64,000 nucleotides of DNA from the NCBI GenBank assembly GCA_903944135.1, contig CAJAQL010000006.1, forward strand, positions 9,425 to 73,424, read 5' to 3'. The DNA comes from an uncultured Parcubacteria group bacterium. Lineage in GTDB: Bacteria > Patescibacteriota > Minisyncoccia > UBA6257 > 2-01-FULL-56-20. Below, piece after piece: positions 13,565 through 63,962 of the stretch (position 1 is its first letter; the number at the start of each line of letters is the position of its first letter). The notes beneath the pieces are model-generated. The model saw nothing but the letters and a program-made list of their open reading frames with translations, was not told where the DNA came from and made no database searches. The position numbers were made by a program, and so were the translations under genes.

Positions 13565-13712
13565 TGTCGTTCCCGCGCATGCGGGAACCCAGCTTTATTT
13601 TTTCCTTTCTGTCATCCTCGACTTGGTCGAGGATACCTGCTTCCTTTCTCTATAATTTGAATAAAGATTGGAAGCACGGATAGTCCCGCCTTCGGGACTA
13701 TGACAGAGAAAA
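13565..13712. repeat. Cluster of 3 GC-rich palindromic repeat units (dispersed family)
   Basis: gttcccgcgcatgcgggaac, ctgtcatcctcgac-ttg-gtcgaggata and agtcccgccttcgggact followed by atgacagag. The same unit types recur at 12 or more other sites. Confidence 0.7.
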
Positions 13713-13722
13713 GGGAAGCTTT

Positions 13723-14487
13723 TTATCTTTTCTTTTTGAACAGGCTGAGCACGAAAAACGCGGCGGCGGTCACGACCACGGTCGCACCGGTGTCGAGATT
13801 ATAGTGCATGGCAATGAATGTGCCGATAAGCATCGAGAGTACGGAAACGATAACGGATGTCGTAAGAAACGTGCCGAGAGAATGAGTGAGTTGGCGTGAA
13901 ACGGCTGCCGGAATAATGATGAGCGATCCCACGAGCAGCGCCCCAAGGAAACGAAGATTGGCGAGGATCGCAAGACCGAAAAGCAGCAAATACCAAAGAT
14001 TTATCCTATCCACATTGATGCCGCTCGAAATTGCGAGCTCCGGCGAAAAAAGCGAAATAATGAGCTTGTTTCGCAAAAGCCATAATGCAACGATGATCAA
14101 AATGCTTGCTCCGGCACCAAAAGCGAATTCGGCGGGCGTGAGATTTTTGAAGCCACCGAAAAGCGCATCAACCAGCGCTTCGTCCGAATGAATGAGAAGC
14201 GCGCCAAGTGCGACCGAGCTCGCAAAGATGACCCCGATCGCGGCTTCGGCGGAAAGCTCGGTCTTTTTCTGCAATTGCCAGATAATAAGGATACCGAGAA
14301 AAAGCGTAAGTCCTCCGCCGACCAAGGGATCCCACGCGAAAAGCAGGGCAAGCCCGAGGCCGGGGATCGCGATATGCGACATCACGTCGCCCGCAAGGAT
14401 GGTCCGCTTCATCAGGGCGAATGCACCAACCAGCCCCGCAGCGGCTGCGGCAAGGATTGCAAGAATTATGGAATAAGAGGAAGCCAT
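13723..14487 (-). CDS. znuB: Metal (Zn/Mn) ABC transporter permease, ABC-3/ZnuB-like
   Basis: 8 predicted TM helices, the ABC-3 family pattern, and translational coupling to the ATPase upstream. Confidence 0.75.
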   Translation of the reverse strand: MASSYSIILAILAAAAAGLVGAFALMKRTILAGDVMSHIAIPGLGLALLFAWDPLVGGGLTLFLGILIIWQLQKKTELSAEAAIGVIFASSVALGALLIHSDEALVDALFGGFKNLTPAEFAFGAGASILIIVALWLLRNKLIISLFSPELAISSGINVDRINLWYLLLFGLAILANLRFLGALLVGSLIIIPAAVSRQLTHSLGTFLTTSVIVSVLSMLIGTFIAMHYNLDTGATVVVTAAAFFVLSLFKKKR

Positions 14488-14518
14488 TGTTTAATATCTA
14501 AAAAGTATCTTTATCTTG

Positions 14519-15259
14519 TCATTGCTGAATGTCGTGATTTTTGGTGCGATGATCATCCGAATGAGAATCGTTGAAATAATGGAAGTACTTGTGCGGTCCA
14601 TAAAGCTTTTCGAGCGCTTCCGGCGTCAAGGCGATGTCGGGTTCTCCGAAACAAACGCCGGCCCGGTTCAGGCACAGCACCTTGGTGGCATATTGGTAGA
14701 CGAAGCTTAAATCGTGCGAAACCACGATGGTCGTAATGCCTTGTGCGTCCTGCAGGCGATGAATAAGATCATATATCTGCTCTTCGCCCGCAACGTCGAT
14801 ACTTGCGGTAGGTTCATCAAAAATAAGTACGCTCGGCTTACCGAGGAGCGCGAAGGCGATCAGCCCCCGCTGGAACTCGCCGCCGGAAAGATGACCTACG
14901 GAAGTCGTAATAATGTTGTTGTTCAGACCGACTATCTCGATAACTTCTTCTATGTCGGCCGCCGGTAATTTGAGGATGCTCGCTTTTGCGGCAAAAAGAT
15001 TCTTGAAATTAACGGGTAAGTGTCGATCGGCATCGATCTTCTGAGGAACATAGCCGATCCGTGTTTTTGGCGCCCATGTTATCGTGCCGCGATAGGGGAT
15101 CATGCCGAGAAGTGCACGAAGAAAAACGGTTTTGCCTGCACCGTTCGGTCCGATGACCGCAAGACTTTCTCCTGCACCAAGTTCCATGGAAACGTCTTCG
15201 AGAACGTTCTTGCCGTCAAAAGAAACTTCAATGTTTAAAACAGTGAGTGCTGGCTGCAT
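14519..15259 (-). CDS. znuC: Metal ABC transporter ATP-binding protein, ZnuC-like
   Basis: Walker A GPNGAGKT, signature LSGGEFQR, Walker B LIFDEP and a His-rich C-terminus (HYFNDSHSDDH). Confidence 0.8.
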   Translation of the reverse strand: MQPALTVLNIEVSFDGKNVLEDVSMELGAGESLAVIGPNGAGKTVFLRALLGMIPYRGTITWAPKTRIGYVPQKIDADRHLPVNFKNLFAAKASILKLPAADIEEVIEIVGLNNNIITTSVGHLSGGEFQRGLIAFALLGKPSVLIFDEPTASIDVAGEEQIYDLIHRLQDAQGITTIVVSHDLSFVYQYATKVLCLNRAGVCFGEPDIALTPEALEKLYGPHKYFHYFNDSHSDDHRTKNHDIQQ

Positions 15260-15393
15260 AAGAAAAGTATAGCATGGATTTTATGAAGCTCCGAGCCAAG
15301 GGATCTGGGCGTTCATCTAAATGTCCCGATGAATAACGTAAAAAAGCGGCCGCCCGACGGATCGGACGGCCAAGGTTAATGGGGTGGTGGATG

Positions 15394-15750
15394 TTATCTC
15401 TTTTGAAAGAGCAGCCCGTCAAGGATCATTCGTGCCGCTTCGGAGAGACTGCACCGTTCCATCTCGGCGACAAACGCCACGACATCGCTTCCGGTGGTCG
15501 TACGTGTTGCGGCACACTGGGTTGAAAGACACCTCCATTTGAGAAGCCCATCCATGACAGGATCGACTTCCGCACGAAAAGACCTTCCTCCTGCCCGCTG
15601 ATGCCCCGGCAGGGGACAATGTCCATAAACGACATTTCCTCTCGTATTTTCGGTGAGCTGAACGCCATAATGTCGCATGGCATGCTCAAGATGAACAGCT
15701 TTCCGGGCCCGCAAAATCATGGACTCGGGGGTGGTCAAAGTACCCGCCAT
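15394..15750 (-). CDS. Standalone CHC2-type (DnaG-like) zinc-finger domain protein
   Basis: GHCPLPGHQ…SFRAEVD…WRCLSTQCAATRTTTGSDVVAFV matches the primase CHC2 zinc-finger pattern (CP-x-H…C-x2-C). At 118 aa there is no TOPRIM domain. Confidence 0.6.
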   Translation of the reverse strand: MAGTLTTPESMILRARKAVHLEHAMRHYGVQLTENTRGNVVYGHCPLPGHQRAGGRSFRAEVDPVMDGLLKWRCLSTQCAATRTTTGSDVVAFVAEMERCSLSEAARMILDGLLFQKR

Positions 15751-15862
15751 ATCTCACCTCATGCAATGAACTGGATTTTAGCTCTTACGAGCCAGAGATA
15801 AAGCATATCAAAATTACAGAGAAAAACAAGAAAAATCCCGCATATCGCGGAAGATCCGAGAT

Positions 15863-16366
15863 CTATTTTATGCCAACTATGCGATAATTCGTTGAACCGT
15901 TTTTCGTTTTTATTGTCACGCTTTCTTCGGATTTTTTTCCGATGAGCGAGGCACCGAGCGGAGATTCCTGCGAGATGCGGCCGGTGTCGGGATTCGTTTC
16001 CTTTGGTCCAACGATTTCAAATCTCTTCTCACCATTTTTCGTTTCGAGCGTAACGATGGAACCGAGTTTGATGCCACCGTCCGCATCGGGTCCCGGCGTT
16101 ATCACGACGACACGCTTCAATTCATCTTCTATCTCCAGTATTTGCCAATTCGCCCTACGAAGCGCTCCTTTGGATGCCGTATATGCCGCGTTGTCCGAAC
16201 GATCGCCCTGAGCAGCCGCCTGTGCCGTATCGGCAATGAGGTTCGGCAGGGATCGCCTGATCCGTGCCAACTTTCCTTGGAGTCGCGCGAAACCCGCCTC
16301 GGTCAGATAAACGGGCCCGGTGTCGCGCTTTTTCAACTCGTCAGATTTGCGTCGAGGGATCTGCAT
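15863..16366 (-). CDS. greA: Transcription elongation factor GreA
   Basis: N-terminal coiled coil (LTEAGFARLQGKLARIRR) and a C-terminal FKBP-like domain (…PLGASLIGKKSEESVTIKT…). Confidence 0.85.
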   Translation of the reverse strand: MQIPRRKSDELKKRDTGPVYLTEAGFARLQGKLARIRRSLPNLIADTAQAAAQGDRSDNAAYTASKGALRRANWQILEIEDELKRVVVITPGPDADGGIKLGSIVTLETKNGEKRFEIVGPKETNPDTGRISQESPLGASLIGKKSEESVTIKTKNGSTNYRIVGIK

Positions 16367-26842: not shown

Positions 26843-26916
26843 AAATGAAATGCGCTGATTGCTTGCTTCTTTGGTATAATAAATAAGAAGTCGTAAAAAA
26901 ACAAATTAAAAATCAT

Positions 26917-26945
26917 GGATTCCCGCTTTCGCGGGAACGACAGAT
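26917..26945. repeat. GC-rich palindromic repeat unit
   Basis: ttcccgctttcgcgggaa followed by cgacag. Confidence 0.7.
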
Positions 26946-27560: not shown

Positions 27561-27653
27561 AGATACTGAACGATCGATCAGATAATTGTCTTTGTTTTTT
27601 CTGTTGGTTATAAAATTGCAGGGGTCGACCTAAGTCGACCCCTTTTGCAAAAC

Positions 27654-28887: not shown

Positions 28888-28960
28888 GAGTGCGTCATTC
28901 CGAGCTTTGCGCGGAATCTCTCTTTTTTTGAGATTTCTCGCAAGGTTCGGAATAACATGC
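28888..28960. repeat. GC-rich palindromic repeat unit between def and fmt
   Basis: gtcattccgagctttgcgcggaatctctc. Confidence 0.65.
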
Positions 28961-28969: not shown

Positions 28970-29467
28970 TTATTTTTCGTGCTCAAATATCTTTTTTGTC
29001 CGGTCAATGAAAAGTTTCCCCTGAAGATGGTCTGTCTCATGCTGGAAAACATGCGCCAGAAGCCCCCACGCTTTGATCTTGATCGGCTTGCCGTTTTTAT
29101 CGAAGCCCGTCAAGGTCACGCGTTCGGCGCGGGGGACATAGCCCCATTTTCCCGGAATGCTCAAGCATCCTTCTTCGAGGATCGCCGTATCCTCGCTTTT
29201 TTTCTCGATCTTCGGATTGAAGATCGCGTAGAATTTCATGCCGCCATCATCAACATCGGGCACTTCCGCAACAAACATATTGAGGTTCAGGCCGATCTGG
29301 TTCGCCGATAAACCGACGCCATTCGCGACACGCATGATGCGGCGCATGCGGGAAACCAGTTCAGTGATCTCTTTTTTTGTGAAATCCTTAAAATCAAAAT
29401 CGGCGGTTTTCTTCCGCAGGAATTTTTCTTCTTTTTTATCGCCCACCATCCAAATATCATTGATCAT
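28970..29467 (-). CDS. def: Peptide deformylase
   Basis: GxGxAAxQ-like GVGLSANQIG, EGCLSIPG and HETDHLQG. Confidence 0.9.
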   Translation of the reverse strand: MINDIWMVGDKKEEKFLRKKTADFDFKDFTKKEITELVSRMRRIMRVANGVGLSANQIGLNLNMFVAEVPDVDDGGMKFYAIFNPKIEKKSEDTAILEEGCLSIPGKWGYVPRAERVTLTGFDKNGKPIKIKAWGLLAHVFQHETDHLQGKLFIDRTKKIFEHEK

Positions 29468-29772
29468 GAGATAACTTTGATGTTTGTATCCTTTTCTTTG
29501 CGTTTTTCCATGACGACCCTCATAAAATATGCTCCTTTGTTTTTCACCTCTCTCCGTTCGGCAACATCTTTTGCGACGGCGCGGAGACGGCGCGAGTCAT
29601 TTTCTTTCGCAAGCTTGATATAAAGCGCTTTGTGCGCCCGATCTCCAAGGATATCGGCGATTTCGAGACCGGTTAGCTGATAATCCCGATAAACATGGGA
29701 TTCTTTCGCCCGGCGCTTAAGCTCGGCCATATACTTTTCGCGCGCGTTCGGCATGATTCTATGGTACGACAT
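29464..29772 (-). CDS. Hypothetical small basic protein
   Basis: 102 aa from the Met at 29772. The longer ORF (to 29874) runs through a repeat element, and the 3' end overlaps the def start by 4 nt. Confidence 0.4.
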   Translation of the reverse strand: MSYHRIMPNAREKYMAELKRRAKESHVYRDYQLTGLEIADILGDRAHKALYIKLAKENDSRRLRAVAKDVAERREVKNKGAYFMRVVMEKRKEKDTNIKVIS

Positions 29773-29779
29773 CTCTTTT

Positions 29780-29858
29780 TTTCTGTCACCCCCCAATTTT
29801 TCCGTCATCCTCCGGCGCCTGCTCCGCAGGTGCGGGCCTGACCGAAGGACCCATGCTC
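29780..29858. repeat. GC-rich palindromic repeat unit
   Basis: ctgtcacc…cgtcatcctccggcgcctgctccgcaggtgcgggcctgaccgaagg. Confidence 0.6.
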
Positions 29859-29926
29859 TTAGAAAAGAAAGCATAATGTTGCCGCTTTTGGAGGACGATG
29901 ATGATAGGTTGTGTTAAAATAATCGC

Positions 29927-32152: not shown

Positions 32153-32208
32153 TTCCACAGAACGGTCATCCCGTGCGCCGGAACGGGATTCATTAAAAAA
32201 TAAACAAA

Positions 32209-34578: not shown

Positions 34579-34795
34579 CGGTCTATCATTCCGAGCGGAT
34601 CCTGTCCCGATGCTTTGCGGGGAACGAGGGGATCTCTCTTTTTATCGTTCCCGCGAAAGCGGGGATTCAGAAACCCTCCTTTTTTCTTTGGCTCCGCGTC
34701 AGGAAACGGAACAATAGAAGAAACGAGGCAGAAGCACGGATCCTCCGCCGGAGTTTATCCTGAGGGCTCCCGAAGGGCTGAGGACGACGGAATAT
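34572..34795. repeat. Cluster of GC-rich palindromic repeat units
   Basis: tcattccgagcggatcctgtcccgatgctttgcggggaac…cgttcccgcgaaagcggggattc…ggctcccgaagggctgagga. Confidence 0.65.
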
Positions 34796-35705: not shown

Positions 35706-35747
35706 GATGGATCCCCGCATGCGCGGGGATGACAATTATTGTCATCA
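35706..35747. repeat. GC-rich palindromic repeat unit
   Basis: ggatccccgcatgcgcggggatgacaattattgtcatc. Confidence 0.7.
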
Positions 35748-35767
35748 AGATAACCCACATTAATATC

Positions 35768-37656: not shown

Positions 37657-37712
37657 AGCGGTTTTTCATATGGAAAGAGGCTGTCCCGTAATGGAACAGC
37701 CTCCGTTTTTTG
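37657..37712. terminator. Terminator hairpin after typA (copy 1 of a duplicated 45-nt element)
   Basis: catatggaaagaggctgtcccgtaatggaacagcctccgttttttgttttt. Confidence 0.65.
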
Positions 37713-37729
37713 TTTTTGTCCGGAGAGGA

Positions 37730-37987: not shown

Positions 37988-38031
37988 GACATCCTCCGGA
38001 AAACAAAAAAATAACTACGTAACCCTATTAC

Positions 38032-38063: not shown

Positions 38064-38075
38064 TAGCATCATATT

Positions 38076-40629: not shown

Positions 40630-40700
40630 TTGTCATGGTCCGCGGAGGCGGACCATCCATGCTAGAAGCACGGGTCATCCGCCTACGCGGCCGATGACAA
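40630..40700. repeat. GC-rich palindromic repeat units
   Basis: atggtccgcggaggcggaccat and gtcatccgcctacgcggccgatgac. Confidence 0.65.
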
Positions 40701-45154: not shown

Positions 45155-45232
45155 ATCTGTCATGTCGAGCCGCGCGAGACATCTCCGAGGCACTTGCTAA
45201 GCCAGATTTCTTGCAAAACTCGGAATGACATT
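45155..45232. repeat. GC-rich palindromic repeat unit
   Basis: ctgtcatgtcgagccgcgcgagacat…actcggaatgaca. Confidence 0.6.
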
Positions 45233-47166: not shown

Positions 47167-47221
47167 TTAGGATAAACAATGGGGACCAGTCATGCTGGTC
47201 CCCTATTTCTTTATCAAAATT

Positions 47222-48289: not shown

Positions 48290-48457
48290 AAAAAAGTTAT
48301 CATTCCGGCAAAATTTTCCTTACGGAAACGAAAAACCAGGATCCAAAGTTTCAGTAAGACAATCATACCAAACTCTCCGTCTCTGCGATACTTGACGATC
48401 ATAGAATAACGTGCCTAAAATAAATCGGTAAGAGTAGGCGAGAAATAGGAGGCGTCT

Positions 48458-48604
48458 ATGATCTGGATGGTGGTAGTAGGTGTTCTGCTTGTGATCGTAC
48501 CGCTCGTGAGCGCACTCATTCCGAGACCTCACCCCGTCAGTGCCTTTGGTGGAGCTTGTGTTCTGTTAGGGATCATCCTGCTCATTCTCTCCATCGGCGC
48601 ATAG
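48458..48604 (+). CDS. Candidate 48-aa hydrophobic micro-protein
   Basis: Perfect SD aggagg 6 nt before the ATG. It encodes MIWMVVVGVLLVIVPLVSALIPRPHPVSAFGGACVLLGIILLILSIGA and is followed by a GC hairpin at 48609-48645. It is below the ORF-track cutoff. Confidence 0.35.
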   Translation: MIWMVVVGVLLVIVPLVSALIPRPHPVSAFGGACVLLGIILLILSIGA

Positions 48605-48714
48605 TTCTAAAAAATGGGCGCGCAACCGCAAGGAAGCGCGCCCAAATTATTCTGAGCACCGAATCCCCGCCGGAACGCAGGCGAATGCCGGGATGAAAGG
48701 ATCAAGAATGGTGA

Positions 48715-51101: not shown

Positions 51102-51202
51102 AAACCTCATATTTTGCCGATTTTTCCCCTGTGGATAACTGCCCTTTTGACGAAGCGGCGGTATGCTTGTTATAGTTAAGTAGTCGAAAATAAATCGAAA
51201 GT

Positions 51203-51305
51203 GTGTCATTCCGAATTTCTCTGTCGTTCCCGCAAAAGCGGGAACCCAGAAAAAACTGGATCCCCGCATGCGCGGGGACGACAGAAACAAAGCTCGGAAT
51301 GACAA
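51203..51305. repeat. Cluster of GC-rich palindromic repeat units upstream of lexA
   Basis: gtcattccgaa…cgttcccgcaaaagcgggaac…ggatccccgcatgcgcggggacgacag…ctcggaatgaca. Confidence 0.7.
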
Positions 51306-53842: not shown

Positions 53843-54161
53843 GGATTCCGAAGTATACCTATATGAACATTGAAAATCTCAAGTGGAGATGGTTGAGGAA
53901 AGTTGGAACCAGCTGGAAAGCTTCATTTTGAAATGGGGTGAGGTGATAAAAGATCGAGAAATGACGAGAATTAGCTAGAAATCCTCCTCCGCTAATACAC
54001 ATGATTAAGATTGAACCTAGTAAGAAGGAATGCAGGATAAGGCGGCCTCATAAAAAGAAATCTATCGCCAAAGCCTCACTATTAGAGAAATTAAGGGGTT
54101 GATCGCTTTAAGCTCTTAGAGATCAGCTAGTAATTCCGTACGTCCCCCTGAATCAAAAACA

Positions 54162-54635
54162 ATGTTTCAAAACACATACGAACAACGCAAGGGAGCTATC
54201 CGAGCCCGCATACATATCAACGATTACATGCGTCGCTATGCGTGGGAACTATTCAAGGGTAATCGACGACCCGTGATGAGAACGCTCTCGGACGCAGACT
54301 ATTATAAAAAGCTTTTCAGCGACCCTCTACACTCACCCATACGCTCAATGCTCGGCATCCCTTCCGGTGAGCTTTATAAATACTGCCAAGAGCTTGATTA
54401 TATCTCCTCAAACCTCGGTAGGGGTTTTATCTTCTATTTCATCTGCACTTGGTGCACTCGGAGGGTGAAATGCCTCTATGTTGACGAGAGTCTTGAGGCA
54501 ATGCTCTGCCGAAAATGTATCAAGCTTCCTTATCGACAGTCATCACGACCCGAACGGTACGCTTCGCGTTATATTCGGAGGCATCCAGAGCTGGTAAAAC
54601 GCTTAATTGATTCTGGCGAAATTCCTATTTATTGA
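54162..54635 (+). CDS. Hypothetical basic protein with a zinc-ribbon-like Cys cluster (island cargo)
   Basis: CTWCTRRVKC…CRKC; low GC. Confidence 0.5.
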   Translation: MFQNTYEQRKGAIRARIHINDYMRRYAWELFKGNRRPVMRTLSDADYYKKLFSDPLHSPIRSMLGIPSGELYKYCQELDYISSNLGRGFIFYFICTWCTRRVKCLYVDESLEAMLCRKCIKLPYRQSSRPERYASRYIRRHPELVKRLIDSGEIPIY

Positions 54636-54711
54636 ATACCTGCGCTCGGGTAGATGCATTTCAAGGGAATTATATACTTTGTAATATCGAACCTGTATAA
54701 TAAAAATATAA

Positions 54712-55560
54712 ATGGAGAAAGTTGAAATTGAAATAGAGTACGATGGTAAAGACGTAGAAGACGGAACTATGTCCTTAGAGGATATGATTCCAGCTCTACA
54801 AGGGCTGTCCAGCGCATATGGGAAGATTGCGATACTTCAAAATCCTGAGGCGCGTCATAATTTGCGAGTTACGGGAGTTGGAAAAGGAACATTCCATATT
54901 CTTATAGAAGCATGGAATCTAGCCGTTCAGAATAAGGATGGAATAATGCTTGCGGCGGCGATGACGGGAATAGCAGAGCCTTCCTTTAAGGTTGTGAAAG
55001 CGATAATTGGCGTAGCTACGACGACAAAGCACGTACAAAATAAGCCTTATACGGAAAAGATAAACGGAGTACAGCAGAGTATTACGATAACCAACTGTGA
55101 AAATGTCACCCTAGAAGTACCGTTGGAAATCTATCAGATTTATAAAGACGGCATGATAAAACAAGACTTGAATAAAATTACTGGATCGCTCGCGGAAGGG
55201 AAAATTGATAGTACCACTCTTAAAGCGAAATCAGAAAAAGAAAGCATAGAGGAAAAAATAACCTTGTCGGAGAAAAAGTTTTTTGAGGTAGAGGAAATCG
55301 TTACTACGGTTACAAAGGAAATGTGGCTTACGGGAGTTTTGAACTCTCTCGCAAAATCTACTAACCGAGGCAGCTTTTATCTCAACGACGGAACACGAGT
55401 ATCTTATCATTTGGGAGGCGATAATCCAGAAAAATTGTATCAGTTCTTTATTTATAAAGGGATAGTGCGAGTGAAATGTACGGCTTCCTTGGACGAGAAT
55501 CTAAAGCCAATACAAATCGAGATTTTGGAGATAAATCAGGTTGAACAACCACTTTTGTAG
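54712..55560 (+). CDS. Hypothetical 282-aa protein (island cargo)
   Basis: Co-directional 76 nt downstream of the previous gene; no recognised motif. Confidence 0.5.
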   Translation: MEKVEIEIEYDGKDVEDGTMSLEDMIPALQGLSSAYGKIAILQNPEARHNLRVTGVGKGTFHILIEAWNLAVQNKDGIMLAAAMTGIAEPSFKVVKAIIGVATTTKHVQNKPYTEKINGVQQSITITNCENVTLEVPLEIYQIYKDGMIKQDLNKITGSLAEGKIDSTTLKAKSEKESIEEKITLSEKKFFEVEEIVTTVTKEMWLTGVLNSLAKSTNRGSFYLNDGTRVSYHLGGDNPEKLYQFFIYKGIVRVKCTASLDENLKPIQIEILEINQVEQPLL

Positions 55561-55593
55561 TTATCCGCATTTCGTATTCACTTGCATGATAAA

Positions 55594-56967
55594 TTAATTC
55601 GTTGATTGAGCGGCCAAGGTATAGGCTTGGATATATCCAATCCCCGCCGTGAGTCCAGATTCTCCGAGCGTCGGGATACCTAAAATACATGGCCCCTTGT
55701 TCAAGATAGCAACACCACCAGAATTGCCATGGTCGATTGCTGCGTTGGTTTTATAGATTGGGCCGGGAAGAATCCCGCTTATGATTCCTTGGGTTACGGT
55801 TTCTGAAATACCGAGAAGATTGCCGGAGCTAGGATAGCCAAATATGGTAACAGTGTCTCCAACATTTACATTAGAACATCCTGAATGTGGAAATTCTGGC
55901 AGATTGTTAATGGCGGGAATAGGACTCAATGTAACTGACGACGGAAGCGGCGTATCGAGAGCAAAAATAGCAGCGTCCTCGTATGTATTTGGGTTATAAT
56001 GAGAATCGATTAAAGCTAACTTATAGTCTCCATAGCCTTCGTTATAACCAAAGTTTGGAGGCTCAGGATATACGGCGTAACAAGCAGGCAATGGCCCACC
56101 TTGGCTTGCCAATTCTGCTTCTGCAAGAACGTGAAAATTCGTTTCAATATCTATATTAGTTGAAGCAATGTTCTTGGTATTCGAACGAAATGAAACACCC
56201 GATCCACTGACCACAACGCTTGAATTAGATGCGTAGCAATTTATTTCAACGATAGTTGGCTCGATTTGATTAATAAGAGATGGCGTAAGGCCCTCGCTTG
56301 CGTTCAGTGAAGTATTTTGAGGCTGCTGAACGGTTGGCGACGAGTTCTGTTGTGATTGCGGTGCGCTATTGTTGCTGGACGTTGTAAAACTTAATGAAGA
56401 TAAAAATGTGTTCTCTAACTGCTGATCTTCTTGTCCTTCCCAATAAAAATAATCAAGCATGTATAAATCATTTCCCTTCAATACATCCATTCCTGATTGA
56501 TATAGAATCGGCTGTGATTGATCAACCTGATTGGAGCTAATATATTTTATGGCCGGGTAGCCCTTAAAGGTTGTTAAACTCGAAGAAACAACTTTGGAAC
56601 CGCCGGAAGTCCCGGTGTATTGAAGCTCGGCTTCAAGATCGGCATCGGCGGACGCGGCTGAACCAGCGAATGCGGATGCAATGTGAGTCGCCTCAAGAGA
56701 GGGATTATTTATACCGTTACCAATACTCCCCCAAGAATAATTGTCATCAGATACGCTATTCCCCTTTGTAAGCTCTTGAGAGGCTGAGGAGTAAGTCGGC
56801 TGATCGGGGAAATAAACGGAGAAGCTGCCATGCTCCAAATTATAACCTTGACCTCCGTTAGCGCTACTGGAAGAATTTTCGGAGATAATAACAACGCCCC
56901 AAATAATAAATGCTACTATTCCTAGACCTATCCAAACTCCTTTGTACGATTCTTTTGCTTCCGGCAT
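55594..56967 (-). CDS. Membrane-anchored trypsin-like serine protease (S1/S1C-like)
   Basis: N-terminal TM, S/N/Q-rich linker, catalytic-triad context NFHVLAEAE (His), AIFALD (Asp), and TNAAIDHGNSGGVAIL (GNSGG Ser motif, as in HtrA TDAAINPGNSGGPL). Confidence 0.7.
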   Translation of the reverse strand: MPEAKESYKGVWIGLGIVAFIIWGVVIISENSSSSANGGQGYNLEHGSFSVYFPDQPTYSSASQELTKGNSVSDDNYSWGSIGNGINNPSLEATHIASAFAGSAASADADLEAELQYTGTSGGSKVVSSSLTTFKGYPAIKYISSNQVDQSQPILYQSGMDVLKGNDLYMLDYFYWEGQEDQQLENTFLSSLSFTTSSNNSAPQSQQNSSPTVQQPQNTSLNASEGLTPSLINQIEPTIVEINCYASNSSVVVSGSGVSFRSNTKNIASTNIDIETNFHVLAEAELASQGGPLPACYAVYPEPPNFGYNEGYGDYKLALIDSHYNPNTYEDAAIFALDTPLPSSVTLSPIPAINNLPEFPHSGCSNVNVGDTVTIFGYPSSGNLLGISETVTQGIISGILPGPIYKTNAAIDHGNSGGVAILNKGPCILGIPTLGESGLTAGIGYIQAYTLAAQSTN

Positions 56968-56981
56968 GGGTGATGTGTGGG

Positions 56982-57704
56982 CTATTCGCTTTGAATATCA
57001 TTCGCCTCTTTTTCTGCGGAAGCGACGCACTCATTCGCCTTCTCTTGCGCTTGGAGACCTTGTACTCCACCCGCTTCGCTTAGATTGGAAGAAGAAGAAC
57101 ATTCTTCATTTTGTGATTGTTCATATTCAATCTGGGATTCGATGCTCGCACCAACAGAGCGGGCTTGATCAATCTTCTGTTGCGCCTCTGCATTTTGCAA
57201 AGTGATTTGAGCAGCTTGCAATAAGGGATTGTAAAGCGCACTCAATAGATTTTGCTCTCCCGTATATTCACTCATACCAGTTCCCGCCCCAACTGTTGCT
57301 CGGAGTTGAGCATAGCGCGTTTGCAGACTATATAGATTTTGTGTTGAGTTATTTATCGCCTCACTGTCAAAGCTGAGATAGCTCTCGTTTGCGAATTGCG
57401 TTTGCTGATCCAAAATAGTAGGCGTTGGACATCCTGCCGGAACTAATGATAATTGGCTCGCGTTGATAATTTCTGAGGGGCAGTTGGAGGGCGTAGAAAC
57501 GATTGTGTTTGGTTGGGATGTGGATTGAGACGTTGAGCTCGATGAATTAACTGAGGGTGAAGTATTTGATTGTAGCGCTTGAGTAGCCATACTGATCGCT
57601 TGGGTGGCAAGGGTCTGTGCCTGCGCACTATTGGCCGTACTGGGGTTTGAAAGCAGCGTCAAAACAAGTTGGAGAAGAACAACTATTGAAGATAAATTTG
57701 CCAT
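56982..57704 (-). CDS. Secreted low-complexity S/T/Q/N-rich protein
   Basis: Signal peptide MANLSSIVVLLQLVLTLLSNPSTANSA, then an S/T/Q-rich region and a Q-rich coiled C-terminus. The start is at the Met at 57704. Confidence 0.55.
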   Translation of the reverse strand: MANLSSIVVLLQLVLTLLSNPSTANSAQAQTLATQAISMATQALQSNTSPSVNSSSSTSQSTSQPNTIVSTPSNCPSEIINASQLSLVPAGCPTPTILDQQTQFANESYLSFDSEAINNSTQNLYSLQTRYAQLRATVGAGTGMSEYTGEQNLLSALYNPLLQAAQITLQNAEAQQKIDQARSVGASIESQIEYEQSQNEECSSSSNLSEAGGVQGLQAQEKANECVASAEKEANDIQSE

Positions 57705-57949
57705 GATATTTTTATTAAAATTTTTATTCCATGGCGTGGAGATCGGCCTCAATAACACAAAACTCCACGCTGTGCCTGAGCCTTGCGGCTCCATAGCCCT
57801 TTCGAGCCATGACCCTAGACGAGTGGCCAAACGTGGAGTTTGGTATCGTCTAGGGTGTTTCGCGCCATGCCCTGATTGCTCAAAGATTTAGGCGACTTAT
57901 ATTAAGTTGTGCTTTCAATGTAACATCGTTCCGACGACTTGTTAAGTCG

Positions 57950-58789
57950 ATGGAAAAATGTCGAAAAATGTCGGATAATAAAGTAACTACGGTGGACTAT
58001 AAAAAAATCGGCCTGCGATATAGAGAACGTTTAGCAACGCTTCGCGCTACGCCAGATTTTGATGAATTTTTGATCGAAACGATAAGACTCGATATGGAGT
58101 TGGAGCAATCGAGGAGAACCGACGGGTATAATTTCGAACCAGCAATTAAAATTCATATCGAGAAAATGCGCCTCATTGAAGGCCTGATTAAAAAATTCCA
58201 TTTGCCGCCACCTTTCCGCAACATCCTTGAAAACCCTTTTTATCCAGAAGCTAATGGCCTATACTTTGCACCTTATCGAATCGATCCGCAGGTTATCCCC
58301 GTTGCCAAAGGTGAATTTGAGCATCCACGCATTTCTGGCGAACCCCTCGATTCGTTAACGGTCACGATTTACGGCAGGCTTTCTACGGAAGATTGGGCTT
58401 CTCTAAAAGAACGTATTGAACGTTTGCAGGACGTAGCTTTCGATACCGAGGCGATTCATCCATTCCGACGTAGTAAAAATATCGATGAGAAGGTTAGAAT
58501 TGTTAAAGAAATGGCTACTCGAAAACCAAGGAGAGTCCGTAAAGAAAATGTCGAGCATAATTATATCGACATTCTTGAGAAATCAATGGGAAAATTATCC
58601 ATCTCAAAAAAGCGAGAGTTTTCTAAACTACATCCTTGGAGCGTGCGAAAGGTTATCGAGAATGGCAGGAGCAGTGCAGATGTGGCCTCACAACTCGGTC
58701 GGCGTAGCAAATCAAAAGATAAGGGCGCTGCTGTCCGAAAGACGCTTTCGCGCTTCAAGAATGCAAAAAAGCGGACAAAAGCACCATAG
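57950..58789 (+). CDS. Hypothetical 279-aa protein with a basic C-terminus (island cargo)
   Basis: No motif recognised; Lys/Arg-rich tail. Confidence 0.5.
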   Translation: MEKCRKMSDNKVTTVDYKKIGLRYRERLATLRATPDFDEFLIETIRLDMELEQSRRTDGYNFEPAIKIHIEKMRLIEGLIKKFHLPPPFRNILENPFYPEANGLYFAPYRIDPQVIPVAKGEFEHPRISGEPLDSLTVTIYGRLSTEDWASLKERIERLQDVAFDTEAIHPFRRSKNIDEKVRIVKEMATRKPRRVRKENVEHNYIDILEKSMGKLSISKKREFSKLHPWSVRKVIENGRSSADVASQLGRRSKSKDKGAAVRKTLSRFKNAKKRTKAP

Positions 58790-58934
58790 CGTTTATTTTT
58801 AAATAAACGTCACAATAGAAATTAATGTCGGGTTTATGATGGCCGTAATGAAATGATTACGGTCATTTTCATTGCACGGTGGCAAAGAAATCGTCATTAG
58901 CCCTCCACCGTGCTAGTGACGATTTCTTTATCTC

Positions 58935-59093
58935 ATGATCGGCACCGAACCCACTATGCTTTCTCTTGGACAATTAAGAGCTATTGATACAGAAAACGAA
59001 CTCTCGGATGAGGAGCTTCTTGAGCTACGCGACGCACTCGACCCTATTCTCGAAAGAATCCTTAATCGCTATTTCAATAGCATATTAGAATAG
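58935..59093 (+). CDS. Candidate 52-aa acidic helical micro-protein
   Basis: MIGTEPTMLSLGQLRAIDTENELSDEELLELRDALDPILERILNRYFNSILE; below the ORF-track cutoff. Confidence 0.3.
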   Translation: MIGTEPTMLSLGQLRAIDTENELSDEELLELRDALDPILERILNRYFNSILE

Positions 59094-59133
59094 GCCTCTT
59101 GCTATGGTATAACTAAGCGGTTAGAATAAAGAC

Positions 59134-59286
59134 ATGGACAAAGAGACGATCAGTAAGGTTATGCGGGAAATGGGGCGGCGCGGAGGGCTTGCGTCCGTAA
59201 ATGCTCGTAAGAAAAGCGGGAAGATGAAGGAGTGGTCTCAAAACGCTATAAAAGCTCGCCGCCGAAAAAAGAATAAAAAAGCATGA
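59134..59286 (+). CDS. Candidate 50-aa basic micro-protein translationally coupled to the recombinase
   Basis: MDKETISKVMREMGRRGGLASVNARKKSGKMKEWSQNAIKARRRKKNKKA. Its TGA stop overlaps the recombinase ATG (ATGA at 59283-59286). Confidence 0.4.
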   Translation: MDKETISKVMREMGRRGGLASVNARKKSGKMKEWSQNAIKARRRKKNKKA

Positions 59287-60863
59287 GCGAACTCAACGCC
59301 ATAATTTACTGCCGCGTCTCGTCGGAACGACAAAAGAACGAGGGTCACGGTCTCGACGGCCAAGAGCAACGTTGCCGTCTCTATTGCGGGCAAAAGCAAT
59401 ACAAAGTTGAGCGGGTCTTTAAGGACAGCTTCACAGGAGGCGGAGATTTTATGGAACGTCCGGCGATGGGAGACCTACTCGCCTACCTCGACAAGCATCC
59501 GCATCGGGATAATTACGTCGTCGTTTTTGATGACCTCAAGCGATTTGCCCGCGACACCGTTTTCCATTTGAAGCTCCGCCGCGAATTTAAGGCGCGGGGC
59601 GTTAAAGTGGAATGCCTTAATTACAAATTCGATGAATCCGAGGAAGGCGAGTTCATCGAAACCGTTTTAGCCGCACAGGGCGAGCTTGAGCGGAAGCAGA
59701 ATCGCCGCCAAGTAATTCAGAAGCAGAAAGCGCGTCTTGAGGCGGGCTATTGGCCTTTTTGCCCGCCGCCAGGCTATCGTCAGCCCAAAACAATGGCCCA
59801 TGGGAAGCTACTTACACCACACGAGCCAGAAGCGACGATGATAAGAATGGCCCTCGAAGGATTTGCGACAGATCGCTTCGAGACACAGGCGGATATGGCT
59901 CACTATTTGGGAGAACAAAATTTCGTCGGCAAAAGCAGAGTTCCCTTCCAGTTGGCGAATCGCTTATTGGCACGAGTTTGGATATATGCCGGATTTATCC
60001 AATATGAACCATGGGAAGTAATGAGGCGAGAAGGTCATCATCAGCCCCTCATTGACTTAGCGACCTATCACAAGATTTTGCGAAAACTCGAAGGTCGTAG
60101 CCCCATAAGGACAAGGGCGGATATGCGTGAGGATTTTCCTTTGCGCCACACCCGTATCGTCTGTAGTAACGGCCATCCTCTTACAGCCTCGTACACGACC
60201 AAAAAGAAGGGCTATAGGAAGCCTTATTATCGTTGTTCTAATAGGACTTGCCCCGAACATACCAAAAGCATCCCTGCTGAGCTTATATTGGCGCAATTCA
60301 AGGCTATGTTGCAGGAAATTCGCCCAAAGCCCCTTATTCTTAAAATCAGCGAAGCGATGCTCTATGAAAAATGGGAACGGCGCGTGGCCGAACGAGCCAA
60401 TAACGAAAAAAGGGAGGTTGGTGAAATTATAGGGATTCAAACGGAGATACGCGACCTCTCAAAGCTTGCACGAAAGGCAAGTAGTGAGCGCGTCCGGCGA
60501 GAGTATGAAAAGCAGATTGAGGAGCTTGCGGCGAAAGAGGAAAAATTAACAGAGAAAAACGATCCGGTGAAGAAGCCGAAAATCGAGTTTAGAACCGCTC
60601 TACAAATGGTGTTTGATTATCTAAAAGACCCATATACCAAGTGGGTTGAGGGCGATTTGAGCGAAAAAAATCTAGTGCTAAACCTCGTTTTTGAGGGTCT
60701 CGTTTTCTATGACCGAGGATTTGGATTTAGAACCGCTCCTTTGTGCCTTCCCTTAAGGGTTTTTGAGCATTTTACTACCTCTAAATTACAGGGTGTGGAG
60801 ACGGGCGGAATCGAACCGCCGTCTAGTAATGAAGCCAATGAGCCGTCTACGGGTGTAGTTTAA
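59283..60863 (+). CDS. Large serine recombinase (resolvase catalytic domain, recombinase domain, zinc ribbon)
   Basis: IYCRVSSERQ places the catalytic Ser in the resolvase N-domain. Long recombinase domain, Cys-containing zinc-ribbon segment (CSNGH…CSNRTCPEH) and coiled coil; 526 aa. Confidence 0.85.
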   Translation: MSELNAIIYCRVSSERQKNEGHGLDGQEQRCRLYCGQKQYKVERVFKDSFTGGGDFMERPAMGDLLAYLDKHPHRDNYVVVFDDLKRFARDTVFHLKLRREFKARGVKVECLNYKFDESEEGEFIETVLAAQGELERKQNRRQVIQKQKARLEAGYWPFCPPPGYRQPKTMAHGKLLTPHEPEATMIRMALEGFATDRFETQADMAHYLGEQNFVGKSRVPFQLANRLLARVWIYAGFIQYEPWEVMRREGHHQPLIDLATYHKILRKLEGRSPIRTRADMREDFPLRHTRIVCSNGHPLTASYTTKKKGYRKPYYRCSNRTCPEHTKSIPAELILAQFKAMLQEIRPKPLILKISEAMLYEKWERRVAERANNEKREVGEIIGIQTEIRDLSKLARKASSERVRREYEKQIEELAAKEEKLTEKNDPVKKPKIEFRTALQMVFDYLKDPYTKWVEGDLSEKNLVLNLVFEGLVFYDRGFGFRTAPLCLPLRVFEHFTTSKLQGVETGGIEPPSSNEANEPSTGVV

Positions 60864-61122
60864 CGAAAGTTAGACAGGTTTTGATCCGTAAGTGTCGCGC
60901 CAACCACAGGATCGTCGAATGGCGTTAAGTTCCCTTATATAAGACCGGCGATGGACCCAAGGAACCCGGATCCGCCGATCCCGACGTCGGTCAGCCGATT
61001 AGGCAAACGCGAACGCCGGAAGCTGCAACTTTTGTGTTGGCAGTTTAAATGATGCGACAAGTACGTCGTCGCCCACGACCCGCAAGCTCATGGAACATCA
61101 CTATCGAAGCCAGTGCGTCCCC
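60796..61122 (-). ncRNA. ssrA: tmRNA (ssrA)
   Basis: Minus-strand 5' GGGGACGCACUGGCUUCGAUAG… matches the tmRNA 5' consensus. Acceptor stem with G3·U70, T-arm GGCGG-UUCGAUU-CCGCC and 3' end CGUCUCCA (identical to B. subtilis ssrA). The tag reading frame is …CAG CUU CCG GCG UUC GCG UUU GCC UAA, giving …QLPAFAFA-stop; CCA is not encoded. Confidence 0.8.
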
Positions 61123-61213: not shown

Positions 61214-61285
61214 CCTGGATCCCCGCTTTCGCGGGGATGACAGAGGGAAAATAATAAAGCAAAAATTATTTTCCCTCTGTCACTT
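61214..61285. repeat. GC-rich palindromic repeat unit plus inverted repeat
   Basis: ggatccccgctttcgcggggatgacagagggaaaataa…ttattttccctctgtcac. Confidence 0.7.
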
Positions 61286-61850: not shown

Positions 61851-61965
61851 TCCCCTCTGTCATTCTGAGCAATAACGAAGAATCCTGCATTCGTCCGAAA
61901 AAATGATCTCTCGCGATATTCCCATCTTCGCTGAAACTACGATGGGCAGGCGGAATGACAGACCT
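61851..61965. repeat. GC-rich palindromic repeat units
   Basis: ctctgtcattctgagcaataacgaagaatc…ggcggaatgacagacc. Confidence 0.65.
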
Positions 61966-62557
61966 ATATTCTTCATGCTATAATGGCCTCATGCCCCCCA
62001 TGAACAACAATCGATTTCAGCGTCGGCCGATGCCGATCTTACCGCCGCGGCCGCTCATGAACCATCAGATCACCGCACTGGAACTTCGCGTGGTCGGTGA
62101 GAACGGCGAAAATCTCGGCGTCATTAGCCGCGATCAGGCGATCGCTTTAACAAGGCCCGAAGAAGGTATTGATCTTATCCTGATCGCTCCCGCGGCGAAA
62201 CCGCCGGTTGCGCGCATCATGAGCTATGACAAGTTCCGGTACGAAGAAGCGAAGCGCGAGAAGAAAGAAAAGGCAGCCCAGAAGAGCGCCGAAATGAAGC
62301 ATGTGCAGATCACGGTTCGTGCCGCACAGAACGATCTCATGGTGAAAGTCCGCCAGGCGGAAAAGTTTTTTGCCGAAGGGCATCCGATCGAAGTGGTGCT
62401 CCGGCTCCGCGGCCGCGAAAAACGGAACAAGGACTTAGCGATGGAGAAGCTGAAAGAATTCCTGAAAATGCTTCCCACAGAACACCGCGAGCTCCATCCC
62501 CCGCGCTTCGGACAGAACGGCCCGAGCGTCCAGATCGCCAAGATCATAAAAAGCTAA
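61955..62557 (+). CDS. infC: Translation initiation factor IF-3
   Basis: ALELRVVGENGENLGVISRDQAIALTRPEEGIDLILI… and a C-domain (VQITVRAAQNDLMVKVRQAEKFF…). The true start is uncertain, since infC often uses a non-ATG start. Confidence 0.8.
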   Translation: MTDLYSSCYNGLMPPMNNNRFQRRPMPILPPRPLMNHQITALELRVVGENGENLGVISRDQAIALTRPEEGIDLILIAPAAKPPVARIMSYDKFRYEEAKREKKEKAAQKSAEMKHVQITVRAAQNDLMVKVRQAEKFFAEGHPIEVVLRLRGREKRNKDLAMEKLKEFLKMLPTEHRELHPPRFGQNGPSVQIAKIIKS

Positions 62558-62583: not shown

Positions 62584-62618
62584 ACCCGGGTCCCTGCTTC
62601 CGCGGGACGACAATAAAC
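62584..62618. repeat. GC-rich palindromic repeat unit
   Basis: cccgggtccctgcttccgcgggacgacaataaa. Confidence 0.6.
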
Positions 62619-62856: not shown

Positions 62857-62857
62857 C

Positions 62858-63202
62858 ATGCCGAGAGTAAAACGAGGAGTCAATGCTTTAAAGCATCGCA
62901 ATAAAACATTAAAGTACGCGAAGGGTTTTTCTTGGGGCCGCAGTACGAAAGAACGAGCCGCCAAGGAAGCTCTGCTTCATGCATGGAGCCACGCCTTCCG
63001 CGGACGCAAGGAGAAAAAGCGGACTGCCCGCCGCGTCTGGAGCGTAAAGATCAATGCCGCAGCAAGAGAAGAAAGCATCTCTTACAGCAAATTGATCGCC
63101 GCACTTAAGAAGAAAAAAGTAACGCTCGACCGAAAGATCCTCGCAGATCTCGCCGAGAACGAACCGAAAGTGTTCAAAAAAGTTCTCGAAGCCGTAAAAT
63201 AA
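62858..63202 (+). CDS. rplT: 50S ribosomal protein L20
   Basis: MPRVKRGVNALKHRNKTLKYAKGF…. Confidence 0.9.
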   Translation: MPRVKRGVNALKHRNKTLKYAKGFSWGRSTKERAAKEALLHAWSHAFRGRKEKKRTARRVWSVKINAAAREESISYSKLIAALKKKKVTLDRKILADLAENEPKVFKKVLEAVK

Positions 63203-63216
63203 GAATCTATCAGATT

Positions 63217-63246
63217 AAAAAATCCGCAGAAATGCGGATTTTTTAA
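63217..63246. terminator. Bidirectional terminator after rplT
   Basis: aaaaaatccgcagaaatgcggatttttt. Confidence 0.7.
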
Positions 63247-63286
63247 TGTCGCCTGACTGCGCTAAAAAAATAAGCTTTTGTCGAAA

Positions 63287-63832
63287 CTATTGCGGATTTT
63301 TTATTTTCTCTTCCTTCTCGGAATGTTCCTGCTCTTTTCTTTCTAAGGGACGATGCTGATACCGTTTGCGGCGTTCAGCAAGGAACAGATTTGCCTGTCG
63401 CAACACTTTGCGCGTATCCTCATACTTCTTTCCGATAACATTCGACGCGTCGCGCGGCAAAAACCAGCCATAGCCGCTGTGTTCGCGCGGTTCGATCCGT
63501 ATCTCCGCCTTGCGCGTCTCGGCAAGGAACAAAATGACCGTATCGAATATCCTTTCGTCTCCGACCTGAAAATGAAACCGTTCATAAGCGCGGAAATTCG
63601 GGACGATATGAAGTTCGGACTTTTTGATGCCGGTCTCTTCCTCGAGTTCCCGGAGCGCCGTATCGATCGTCCGTTCACCGGGTTCGAAATGACCCTTCGG
63701 AAAATTCCAGTAGCTCCCGCGGCGATACAGCAGAAGAAACTTCACACCCTCGGTCGTACGGCGGTAGATCACAAAACCGGCAACGACCTGCTTTTTCATG
63801 GATAGTTTCTCGCGCGGAGCTTCATCTTTCAT
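63287..63832 (-). CDS. NUDIX hydrolase
   Basis: Nudix box GHFEPGERTIDTALRELEEETGI. The start is at an internal Met, and the longer ORF runs through the repeat at 63905-63962. Confidence 0.8.
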   Translation of the reverse strand: MKDEAPREKLSMKKQVVAGFVIYRRTTEGVKFLLLYRRGSYWNFPKGHFEPGERTIDTALRELEEETGIKKSELHIVPNFRAYERFHFQVGDERIFDTVILFLAETRKAEIRIEPREHSGYGWFLPRDASNVIGKKYEDTRKVLRQANLFLAERRKRYQHRPLERKEQEHSEKEEKIKNPQ

Positions 63833-63904
63833 TGGTCTTATTGTAACATGCCGCCCCTGGCCCGGTCGAGGAAGCCTATTTTCAAGGAAAATAACAAAGC
63901 ACGA

Positions 63905-63962
63905 ATGGTCCGTCTTCACGGACCACGACAATAAAGCTCGGCAGGGAGCTTTATTGTCGTTT
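63905..63962. repeat. GC-rich palindromic repeat units
   Basis: tggtccgtcttcacggacca followed by cgacaataaagctcggcagggagctttattgtcg. Confidence 0.65.

Follow-up and report, generated by a model that had tools for sequence, protein, structure and literature searches.

Palindromic GTC-headed repeats of a Patescibacteria genome as likely members of the NTS/Ssn-related motif class

The dRS3 repeat of Neisseria is the core of NTS, a 28-nt oriented element (CGTCATTCCCGCGMAVGCGGGAATCYRG), and more degenerate "Ssn-related motifs" (SRMs) are found in many bacteria, with Rickettsia and Wolbachia among the SRM-rich genomes (Chenal et al., Nat Commun 2025, PMC11893778). The same study describes SsnA, a 94-aa single-domain GIY-YIG nuclease (cd10448), which binds NTS only as a single-stranded DNA (ssDNA) hairpin and cuts a few nucleotides upstream of it. 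Cutting depends on the 3 nt that precede the palindrome and binding on the C that follows it, while the loop is dispensable; the ssn genes themselves are typically flanked by an NTS or SRM motif. Here, we analyze a 64-kb stretch (hereafter, the window) of contig CAJAQL010000006.1 from an uncultured Parcubacteria group bacterium, a Paceibacteria-like member of the Patescibacteria or candidate phyla radiation (CPR), whose intergenic DNA carries a dispersed family of short palindromic repeats. We consider it likely, with a probability of roughly 0.7, that these are hairpin repeats of the NTS/dRS3 or SRM class.

Unit anatomy and the match to NTS

We curated 25 units or half-units at 14 intergenic sites, and all of them share one frame. 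Read 5' to 3', this frame consists of (T/C)GTC, an imperfect palindrome opening with R-T and closing with A-Y, and then a C, which usually lies inside CCAG, CCATGC, CCGTGCTTC, or CTCTC and commonly within CC(A/G)(T/G). The stem is 8 to 10 bp long (6 to 10 bp across all units) and the loop 3 to 5 nt, with some units having a loop of 25 to 40 nt that contains an inner hairpin. Over the curated set (n = 25), the heads are 19 TGTC, 3 CGTC, 1 GGTC, and 3 degenerate (2 TATC and 1 TGTT), and GTC is the best-conserved block of the unit alignment. The palindrome is directly followed by C in 17 of 21 complete-hairpin units (A, D, E, B, and long-loop classes); an A takes this place at 13610 and a T at 32164, 34643, and 63899. 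Across all classes, MAFFT aligned the 5' half only.

Within this frame, at least five stem "dialects" (TCCCGC, TCCGAGC, GGTCCGC, CCTCGAC, and AGTCCCG) occur side by side, together with the long-loop variants. The commonest unit is class A, TGTCRTYCCCGC-N4-GCGGGRAYCCA, whose stem RTYCCCGC-N4-GCGGGRAY is present in 7 copies plus 2 A-like units. Class B, ATTCCGAGC...GCGmGGAAT, has about 8 copies, several of them decayed, while class C (ATCCTCGAC) has a single copy, class D (variable stem with the tail CCGTGCTTC) three, and class E (RTGGTCCGY) two. The fragments from which the original prediction had built its repeat family find their places in this scheme: GTCATTCCGAG is the class B head, TCCCGC-n-GCGGGA the class A stem, tggtccg-n-cggacca the class E stem, and the trailing GACAG/GACAA the GTC head seen on the opposite strand. 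All 13 sites that it named as belonging to a dispersed palindromic repeat family contain what was described; a further unit at 32164-32192 was absent from that list, and there is a possible degenerate unit near 48643-48700.

Apart from its first base and R/Y positions, unit A is identical to the published NTS. More generally, we assign the repeats to the NTS/SRM class because the positions reported as critical for SsnA are those most conserved across all unit classes. Strict expressions catch few copies because TGTCGT, a different stem, or a long loop is found in many of them: allowing up to 3 mismatches, NTS recovers 2 window copies, and the SRM expression HGTCWYN(0-2)YYVSBRHN(0-5)WNVSBRGN(0-2)RNCYNB gives 2 true matches and 1 inside a gene, against 0.17 per shuffle.

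Unit A (TGTCRTYCCCGCNNNNGCGGGRAYCCA) has 6 exact copies and 1 with two mismatches, compared with 0 in 100 dinucleotide shuffles. A class-independent scan for GTC plus [AG]T, a hairpin of at least 7 bp beginning right after GTC, and a C after the stem returned 11 matches, whereas 200 shuffles averaged 0.33 and never exceeded 3; 9 of the 11 are at the listed sites, and the remaining two (36668 and 62737) are inside genes and chance-like. A plain count of hairpin feet by the preceding tri- or tetranucleotide was too noisy for GTC to stand out, with sub-stems inflating other words. TGTCRT/AYGACA reaches a density of 2.86 per kb between genes, 3.3 times that within genes (0.86 per kb), and every one of the 25 curated units is intergenic, the intergenic share of the window being 14.8%. 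The window holds about 0.4 units per kb, which, if it is typical, extrapolates to several hundred units per genome; there are none before 13.5 kb or within an island at 53.9-60.8 kb of the window. When folded as ssDNA, six clusters (13563, 28892, 40629, 51203, 61214, and 63903) are much more stable than shuffles, with z-scores from -4.6 to -10.5. No significant gain over shuffles is seen at 45156, 61854, 34581, 34725, and 29780, which look like decayed or long-loop copies recognizable only by the GTC-RT...AY-CC(A/G)TGC frame. In all 7 multi-unit clusters, the + copies precede the - copies, with GTC facing outward.

Searches at the Rfam gathering and E-value thresholds found no family at any unit, and a mir-670 match on the 51213-51295 hairpin (E = 0.1) is spurious. 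CRISPR arrays, integron attC sites, and tandem repeats were dropped on anatomical grounds (irregular spacing, no R''/R' cores, and dispersed copies).

Partner genes and alternative explanations

The nature of the partner is indicated by the occurrence of the same units in other genomes. The exact A pattern, a 27-mer, is present in at least 120 stretches of genome_contigs (one genome per species) from more than 20 phyla and in at least 120 stretches of viral contigs in IMG/VR, while the B pattern is present in at least 120 stretches of JGI metagenome contigs. The genome_contigs matches listed for the A pattern include 9 loci of CPR metagenome-assembled genomes (MAGs), 1 Nanoarchaeota MAG locus, and a Rickettsia endosymbiont (L089). 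We searched 2.7 Mb of such unit-bearing loci, combining the A-pattern matches of genome_contigs and IMG/VR with the B-pattern matches of the JGI metagenome_contigs, and among the matches listed found 14 (7 + 6 + 1) canonical ssn open reading frames (ORFs) with the NPxWxDL C-terminus, most of them bracketed by inverted units and one encoding a protein 58% identical to gonococcal SsnA. In the 7 ssn loci from genome_contigs, an A-type unit stands directly beside the gene on every flank covered, and on both sides, GTC outward, in five: A flanks ssn on both sides in L014, L072, L111, and L115, while in L053, L074, and L112 there is an A-type variant beside ssn or a unit only on the side that is within the locus. 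Of the 6 ssn ORFs in unit-bearing IMG/VR loci, 4 are beside the A-unit match by coordinates. The same GTC-outward bracketing is formed by B units around ssn in L209 and by NTS around ssnA of N. gonorrhoeae, taken from a chromosome catalogued with plasmids. All unit-bracketed GIY-YIG genes that we found elsewhere are of the canonical type. Conversely, phmmer searches with E. coli RayT, a probe that detects the gonococcal RAYT (REP-associated tyrosine transposase, where REP denotes repetitive extragenic palindromic elements) at 49% identity as a positive control, found no homologue in the window, in 235 kb of loci from the same clade, or in the 2.7 Mb of unit-bearing loci. Since ssn is bracketed by units elsewhere and RayT homologues were not found in the same loci, the partner of this repeat type is a GIY-YIG nuclease and not a Y1 transposase.

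A trace of this partner is also seen in relatives of the window. Named homologues of the window's DnaB and GIY-YIG proteins come from Patescibacteria (Paceibacterota, Minisyncoccia, Liptonbacteria, Taylorbacteria, and Giovannonibacteria), and the related loci L129-L132 are syntenic with 46.9-63.8 kb of the window at about 89% nucleotide identity. In these loci, the rplT-NUDIX spacer, which is empty in the window, contains an insertion of about 215 nt made up of a C-type unit, 35 nt, and then MEKQYFIYISANKPGGTLYNGK; this last part matches the Ssn profile over its positions 1-22, after which the frame decays (a weak score, E = 0.008 over 235 kb). Its position and orientation are those seen in every intact ssn cassette. 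Because unit and truncated ssn are placed as in intact cassettes, we conclude that this genus once carried an ssn cassette. Used as a database query, the remnant returned no match. A weak ssn match at 48323-48565 is noise, and the GIY-YIG genes of L134 and L113, considered as partners, belong to another subtype and have no flanking units.

Several observations weigh against assigning the repeats to the NTS/SRM class. The canonical ssn (cd10448-like, NPxWxDL) was not found in the 64-kb window, nor was an ssn remnant, even among ORFs of at least 12 aa. The annotation of 10 kb beyond each window end on the 167-kb contig shows no further GIY-YIG gene, and 235 kb of the same clade yielded no intact canonical ssn, only the 22-residue remnant. 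The one GIY-YIG gene of the window is of the UPF0213 type, and no units flank it either in the window or in the related locus L258. Furthermore, the published SRM expression recognizes just 2 of the 25 units, most of the others failing through a G where it requires W, a different stem, or a long loop, and SsnA reportedly recognizes the sequence of the stem in addition to its shape, so that one enzyme for five stem classes is not obvious. Finally, in the view of Bertels and Rainey, this Neisseria sequence is the REPIN (a REP doublet forming a hairpin) of a Group-2 RAYT.

The first of the alternatives holds that the units of this CPR lineage are recognized by that window gene, a UPF0213/YhbQ-type GIY-YIG gene for an 84-aa protein at 8288-8542 (+), in place of a canonical Ssn. 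Being the only GIY-YIG gene in the window, and in a clade from which 235 kb show no intact canonical ssn, it may on sequence grounds encode a possible partner enzyme. Its product matches gonococcal SsnA with 32% identity (E = 5e-15) and the Ssn profile with E = 3e-16, roughly the level of the loose tblastn criterion in the Ssn paper. However, its best relatives of solved structure are the UPF0213 proteins BH0048 and EF2693, it is without the NPxWxDL tail, and it is conserved across many Paceibacteria lineages in a housekeeping-like manner. Taken with the absence of units around it and the canonical type of all unit-bracketed genes elsewhere, these points make such a role unlikely.

A second alternative would have the units be REP/REPIN elements mobilized and maintained by a RAYT of the Y1 HUH type, as has been proposed for the ATTCCCGCGCAGGCGGGAATC repeat of Neisseria. 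The resemblance extends to intergenic hairpins, inverted doublets, and clusters like those of bacterial interspersed mosaic elements (BIMEs); moreover, the gonococcal RAYT has an NTS doublet 140-240 nt upstream of it, and the assignment by Bertels and Rainey favors the same view. We nevertheless hold this explanation to be improbable, given that RayT homologues were not found in any of the loci searched, that the unit head is (T)GTC and not the GTAG/GTGG of REP elements, and that the gonococcal RAYT is directly flanked not by NTS but by GTAG-type hairpins. The latter gene (L260, NZ_CP119140.1 1074775-1075947) is frameshifted, and its immediate flanks are the REP hairpins GTAGGTCGGAT...ATCCGACCTAC; these, like the upstream NTS doublet, bear on which repeat is the RAYT's own.

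Slightly less credible still is the proposition that the units act as functional RNA elements or as signals for transcription, for instance terminators or mRNA-stabilizing 3' hairpins, maintained by gene-wise selection and neither mobile nor linked to a nuclease. Some units do follow stop codons (13565 and 34584), two or three scored as terminator-like (26938, 51279, and 34749), and the A(+) stem upstream of lexA differs from its counterpart in L129 by two paired changes that keep the pairing. Yet terminator-like sites are not enriched over shuffles (27 versus 24.9 and 29 versus 22.4), most units have no T-run directly after the stem, and several are inside operons or in 5' untranslated regions (UTRs), while separate classical A/T-flanked terminators exist (e.g., 63212-63249, 27620-27643, and 47181-47203). 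Nor do gene-specific signals fit with one and the same 27-mer being present in over 20 phyla as well as in viral contigs, and no Rfam family matches. The terminator role offered in the original prediction is accordingly not borne out, with a T-run after only two or three units. The least probable explanation is that the units are miniature inverted-repeat transposable elements (MITEs) derived from an ordinary DDE-type insertion sequence whose terminal inverted repeats would be GTCATTCCGAG. It draws on the inverted GTCATTCCGAG / CTCGGAATGAC ends of 51204-51304 and 61858-61960, but can be set aside as very improbable: three filled/empty comparisons show no target-site duplication, the supposed terminal repeat makes up the 5' half of a hairpin unit of type B that is also found by itself, and the window has no DDE transposase, its only recombinase being a serine recombinase (59283-60863) in the unit-free island.

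Turnover, gene context, and neighboring features

Comparison of orthologous spacers among relatives shows units gained, lost, or replaced. The E+D doublet of the cysS-dnaB spacer is absent from L125 and L136, where the genes abut, and L128 has a different GTC-hairpin there. L129 also has the 100-nt nested composite upstream of lexA, though with two paired changes in the stem and with its left end decayed; L125 and L136 lack it. Between tmRNA and bPH_2, the window has an A unit, L129 an E unit at another position, and L125 none. The ABC-F/ABC-3 spacer carries A+C+D in the window and A+A in L258, and the A-like unit between infC and rpmI has 24 extra loop nucleotides in L129. The junction of a doublet in L134 (tRNA-Thr/AI-2E spacer) is too diverged to be read. 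Other hairpin classes, e.g., CGAGGTTGAACCTCG and CTCATTCCGGCgaagGTCGGAATCTAGG, follow GTC or CTC heads at 951-1249 of L125 and 9939-10000 of L128; therefore, the "dialects" differ between lineages of one clade. In a separate case, the stem of the rplT terminator (63212-63249; about 10350-10390 in L129) is identical in both genomes, with the 4-nt loop reverse-complemented (gaaa in the window and tttc in L129), which is consistent with inversion of the loop within the palindrome.

If the repeats are of the NTS/SRM class, the published properties of SsnA (PMC11893778) allow a mechanism to be sketched. A unit would fold when the DNA becomes single-stranded during replication, transformation, or repair, and an Ssn-type GIY-YIG nuclease would bind the stem and the 3' C and nick the same strand just 5' of the GTC-hairpin. 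The clusters look like gene-less derivatives of an ssn cassette because their GTC-outward order is the order that brackets ssn elsewhere; as such, they would be comparable to REPINs or MITEs and might spread or decay through single-stranded intermediates. The autonomous partner in this CPR lineage would be encoded outside the window or already lost, and most copies would probably be passive residents, some of which landed in 5' UTRs or supply -35-like hexamers.

A more specific proposal, which we regard as tentative and on balance doubtful, is that the units are gene-less derivatives of a mobile ssn cassette that inserts into ssDNA directly 3' of a (T)GTC(R) target, the GTC not being part of the element, and that Ssn is the nuclease of a new class of GIY-YIG-driven hairpin transposons, comparable to IS200/IS605 and its Y1 enzymes. 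The two clean empty sites, TTTTGTCG|AAAC in the window, where L129 has the unit and ssn remnant, and AAAGTCAT|CC-ATG in L136, where the window has the lexA composite, both retain GTC(A/G) at the left junction, without target duplication. Additionally, three units abut palindromes whose far arm ends in an unoccupied TGTC. As a lead from two cases, the GTC(A/G) at empty sites would fit insertion 3' of a GTC target, by analogy with IS200/IS605 and its tetranucleotide. If this were true, several hairpin "dialects" would be competing in one tiny CPR genome, and units might persist after loss of the enzyme or be serviced by the UPF0213 GIY-YIG protein. Whether and how the repeats move is a question left open by PMC11893778, for which the relatives provide a natural series of filled, empty, and replaced sites and a decaying ssn cassette.

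With respect to genes, mapped by Pfam scans and the gene calls of an almost identical contig, the proposed preference for gene ends proved too narrow: two unit sites lie between convergent genes (13.6 and 34.6 kb), four between divergent genes (29.8, 35.7, and 61.9 kb, and 26.9 kb between tRNA-Gln and sodA), and at least six between co-directional genes (def-fmt, ctpA-rplI, cysS-dnaB, murC-PDDEXK, infC-rpmI, and AAA18-lexA), some of the latter being inside operons (def-fmt and cysS-dnaB), and some units lie in predicted 5' UTRs (lexA, bipA, and sodA). At the first convergent site, a cluster spanning 13565-13705 (z = -9.0) begins directly after the stop codon of an ABC-F gene with unit A, TGTC GTTCCCGC gcat GCGGGAAC CCAG (13565-13592, +), which has an orthologous copy in L258. 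It continues with unit C, TGTC ATCCTCGAC ttg GTCGAGGAT ACCTGC (13610-13640, +), and ends with unit D, TGTC ATAGTCCCG aagg CGGGACTAT CCGTGCTTC (13671-13705, -), TGTC outward. The second (34584-34789, both strands) is a partly decayed cluster of three units, namely a B unit with an expanded loop (34584-34638, +), a unit A with two mismatches (34643-34670, +), and a long-loop D unit with the CCGTGCTTC tail (34731-34789, -).

Among the divergent sites, a single unit A (26916-26942, -) lies 12 nt upstream of the sodA start codon, and the site at 29803-29856 (+) is a weakly folding long-loop unit, CGTC ATCCTCCGG, a 26-nt loop with an inner hairpin, and CCGAAGGAC CCATGC. The bipA leader carries, downstream of a TATAAT box, a site at 35708-35746 (-) in which unit A (35708-35734) is followed by an inverted TTGTCAT remnant. 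Between bPH_2 and infC there is an old B-type element, TGTCATTCTGAGC...GGCGGAATGACA (61858-61960), which is kept in L129. The co-directional sites comprise a B doublet in the def-fmt spacer within the operon (28893-28958, z = -4.6), whose + copy reads CGTC ATTCCGAGC ttt GCGCGGAAT CTCTC and whose - copy is degenerate; an A-like unit, GGTC ATCCCGTGC gccg GAACGGGAT T, between ctpA and rplI (32164-32192, +); the cysS-dnaB doublet (40631-40699, z = -6.5) of E (+), TGTC ATGGTCCGC ggag GCGGACCAT CCATGC, and D (-) with the CCGTGCTTC tail; a weakly folding B-type doublet between murC and PDDEXK (45158-45230); and an A-like unit, TGTC GTCCCGCG gaag CAGGGACC C, between infC and rpmI (62586-62612, -). Between the predicted promoter/operator of lexA and its ATG stands the nested composite (51204-51304, z = -10.5), in which a B half (+), A (+), A (-), and B half (-) follow one another; the gene downstream is lexA and not bcp. 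Two sites on the - strand combine a unit with a flanking palindrome: 61215-61282 between tmRNA and bPH_2 (z = -9.3) joins unit A (61215-61242) to the 19-bp palindrome TGACAGAGGG...CCCTCTGTCA, and 63899-63960 upstream of the NUDIX gene (z = -9.9) joins unit E (63899-63930) to GACAATAAAGCTC...GAGCTTTATTGTC (63925-63960).

The claim that the repeats create spurious N-terminal extensions was correct for fmt, bcp, the NUDIX gene, and the ORF at 29464. The true N-terminus of Fmt (MNYIFFGTP) begins at 28885, downstream of the B doublet; Bcp has 156 aa in a relative against 240 aa as called in the window, where the calls for bcp and bipA are over-long and overlap the unit at 35708-35746; the NUDIX protein has 181 aa against an ORF of 214 aa; and the 136-aa "gene" 29464-29874 has a spurious N-terminal part that contains the long-loop unit. 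A literature search on spurious repeat-encoded peptides returned no match. In the annotation of CPR and other MAGs, such hairpins should be masked, since they lengthen ORFs and create fake peptides.

Certain unit ends, ATGACA (61955-61984) and TTGTCA (35739-35766), form -35-like hexamers suitably spaced from TATAAT-like boxes. Of the two, the infC site, at the right end of the 61858-61960 element, scores 11/12, has an extended -10, and is kept in L129, while the bipA site scores 9/12; repeat ends may thus have been recruited as promoter parts. Upstream of lexA, AGTCGAAAATAAATCGAAA (51181-51199) lies between the predicted -10 box and the start codon, at the same position in L125, L129, L134, and L136. 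This is the probable LexA operator in the clade, and the repeat composite has inserted immediately downstream. At 51128-51138, roughly 10 nt upstream of the -35 hexamer predicted for lexA, is CCTGTGGATAA, the reverse complement of the DnaA-box-like TTATCCACA, which is kept in all these relatives. A second copy (1896-1906) precedes the gene at 2038, though two copies are also reached in 9 of 100 shuffles and are not significant.

The unit-free island (53888-60793) is a 6.9-kb region of low GC content (42-47%), which is absent from L129-L132, where 0.87 kb takes its place. It ends in a large serine recombinase of 526 aa (59283-60863) that overlaps the tmRNA gene (60793-61122, -), 3' end to 3' end, and it looks like an integrative element at ssrA. 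Between two hypothetical genes, it contains a full-length LOOT RNA (Rfam RF03000; 57778-57894, -; 73 bits against a gathering threshold of 46), placing this motif on a mobile element of a Patescibacteria genome. The tag peptide that ARAGORN predicts for the tmRNA at 60795-61122, ANTKVAASGVRVCLIG, is unusual in that its end is not ...LAA-like, reflecting either a mis-set frame or a CPR feature. Elsewhere, direct repeats within 37665-38419 flank two small ORFs (37730-37987 and 38133-38348), one repeat of 46 nt (37665-37710 / 38074-38119, 98% identical) and one of 50 nt (38014-38063 / 38370-38419, 82%); the pattern suggests that a small gene was duplicated in tandem together with its terminator, over about 409 bp.

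Comparison with known systems

Abundant hairpin repeats in the small genomes of host-associated bacteria are also known as the palindromic elements of Rickettsia and Wolbachia. Those of Rickettsia exceed the present units in length (about 100-150 bp) and are frequently found in frame within genes, whereas no unit described here is inside a confirmed gene. The IS200/IS605 elements and their gene-less derivatives, the palindrome-associated transposable elements (PATEs), likewise have subterminal hairpins that are read as ssDNA and a short fixed sequence 5' of the hairpin; however, there is no TnpA or TnpB here, and GIY-YIG enzymes make no covalent intermediate. With the REP/BIME/REPIN-RAYT systems (Nunvar 2010; Ton-Hoang 2012; Bertels and Rainey), the repeats share a conserved 5' tetranucleotide, inverted doublets, mosaics, strain variation, and a partner gene flanked by its own repeats, but the partner next to these units is a GIY-YIG enzyme and not one of the HUH/Y1 type. 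Hence, the description of the repeats as REP/BIME- or MITE-like holds insofar as they are dispersed, intergenic, clustered, and gained, lost, or replaced, while the family itself is neither REP/RAYT nor a classical MITE.

The closest parallel is with NTS/SRM. In addition to the nearly identical 28-mer of unit A, the two share the frame of GTC head, hairpin, and C, an almost exclusively intergenic location, inverted doublets with GTC outward, and a wide spread over many phyla; the GTC-outward clusters of the window correspond to the arrangement that brackets ssn in other genomes, minus the gene. The differences are that the host here belongs to the CPR/Patescibacteria, a group unmentioned in PMC11893778; that at least five stem classes and long-loop variants coexist within 64 kb; that many copies have TGTCGT, which the published SRM expression rejects; and that a canonical ssn is not in this window and a truncated one is present only in relatives. 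The repeat class is thus a known one, described in 2025 and seen in Neisseria since 2000, while its setting is new in the CPR host, the high density, and the number of stem classes. More generally, these findings would add a streamlined genome of the episymbiont type to the known range of the NTS/Ssn repeats, which has so far comprised Neisseria and a few Pseudomonadati.

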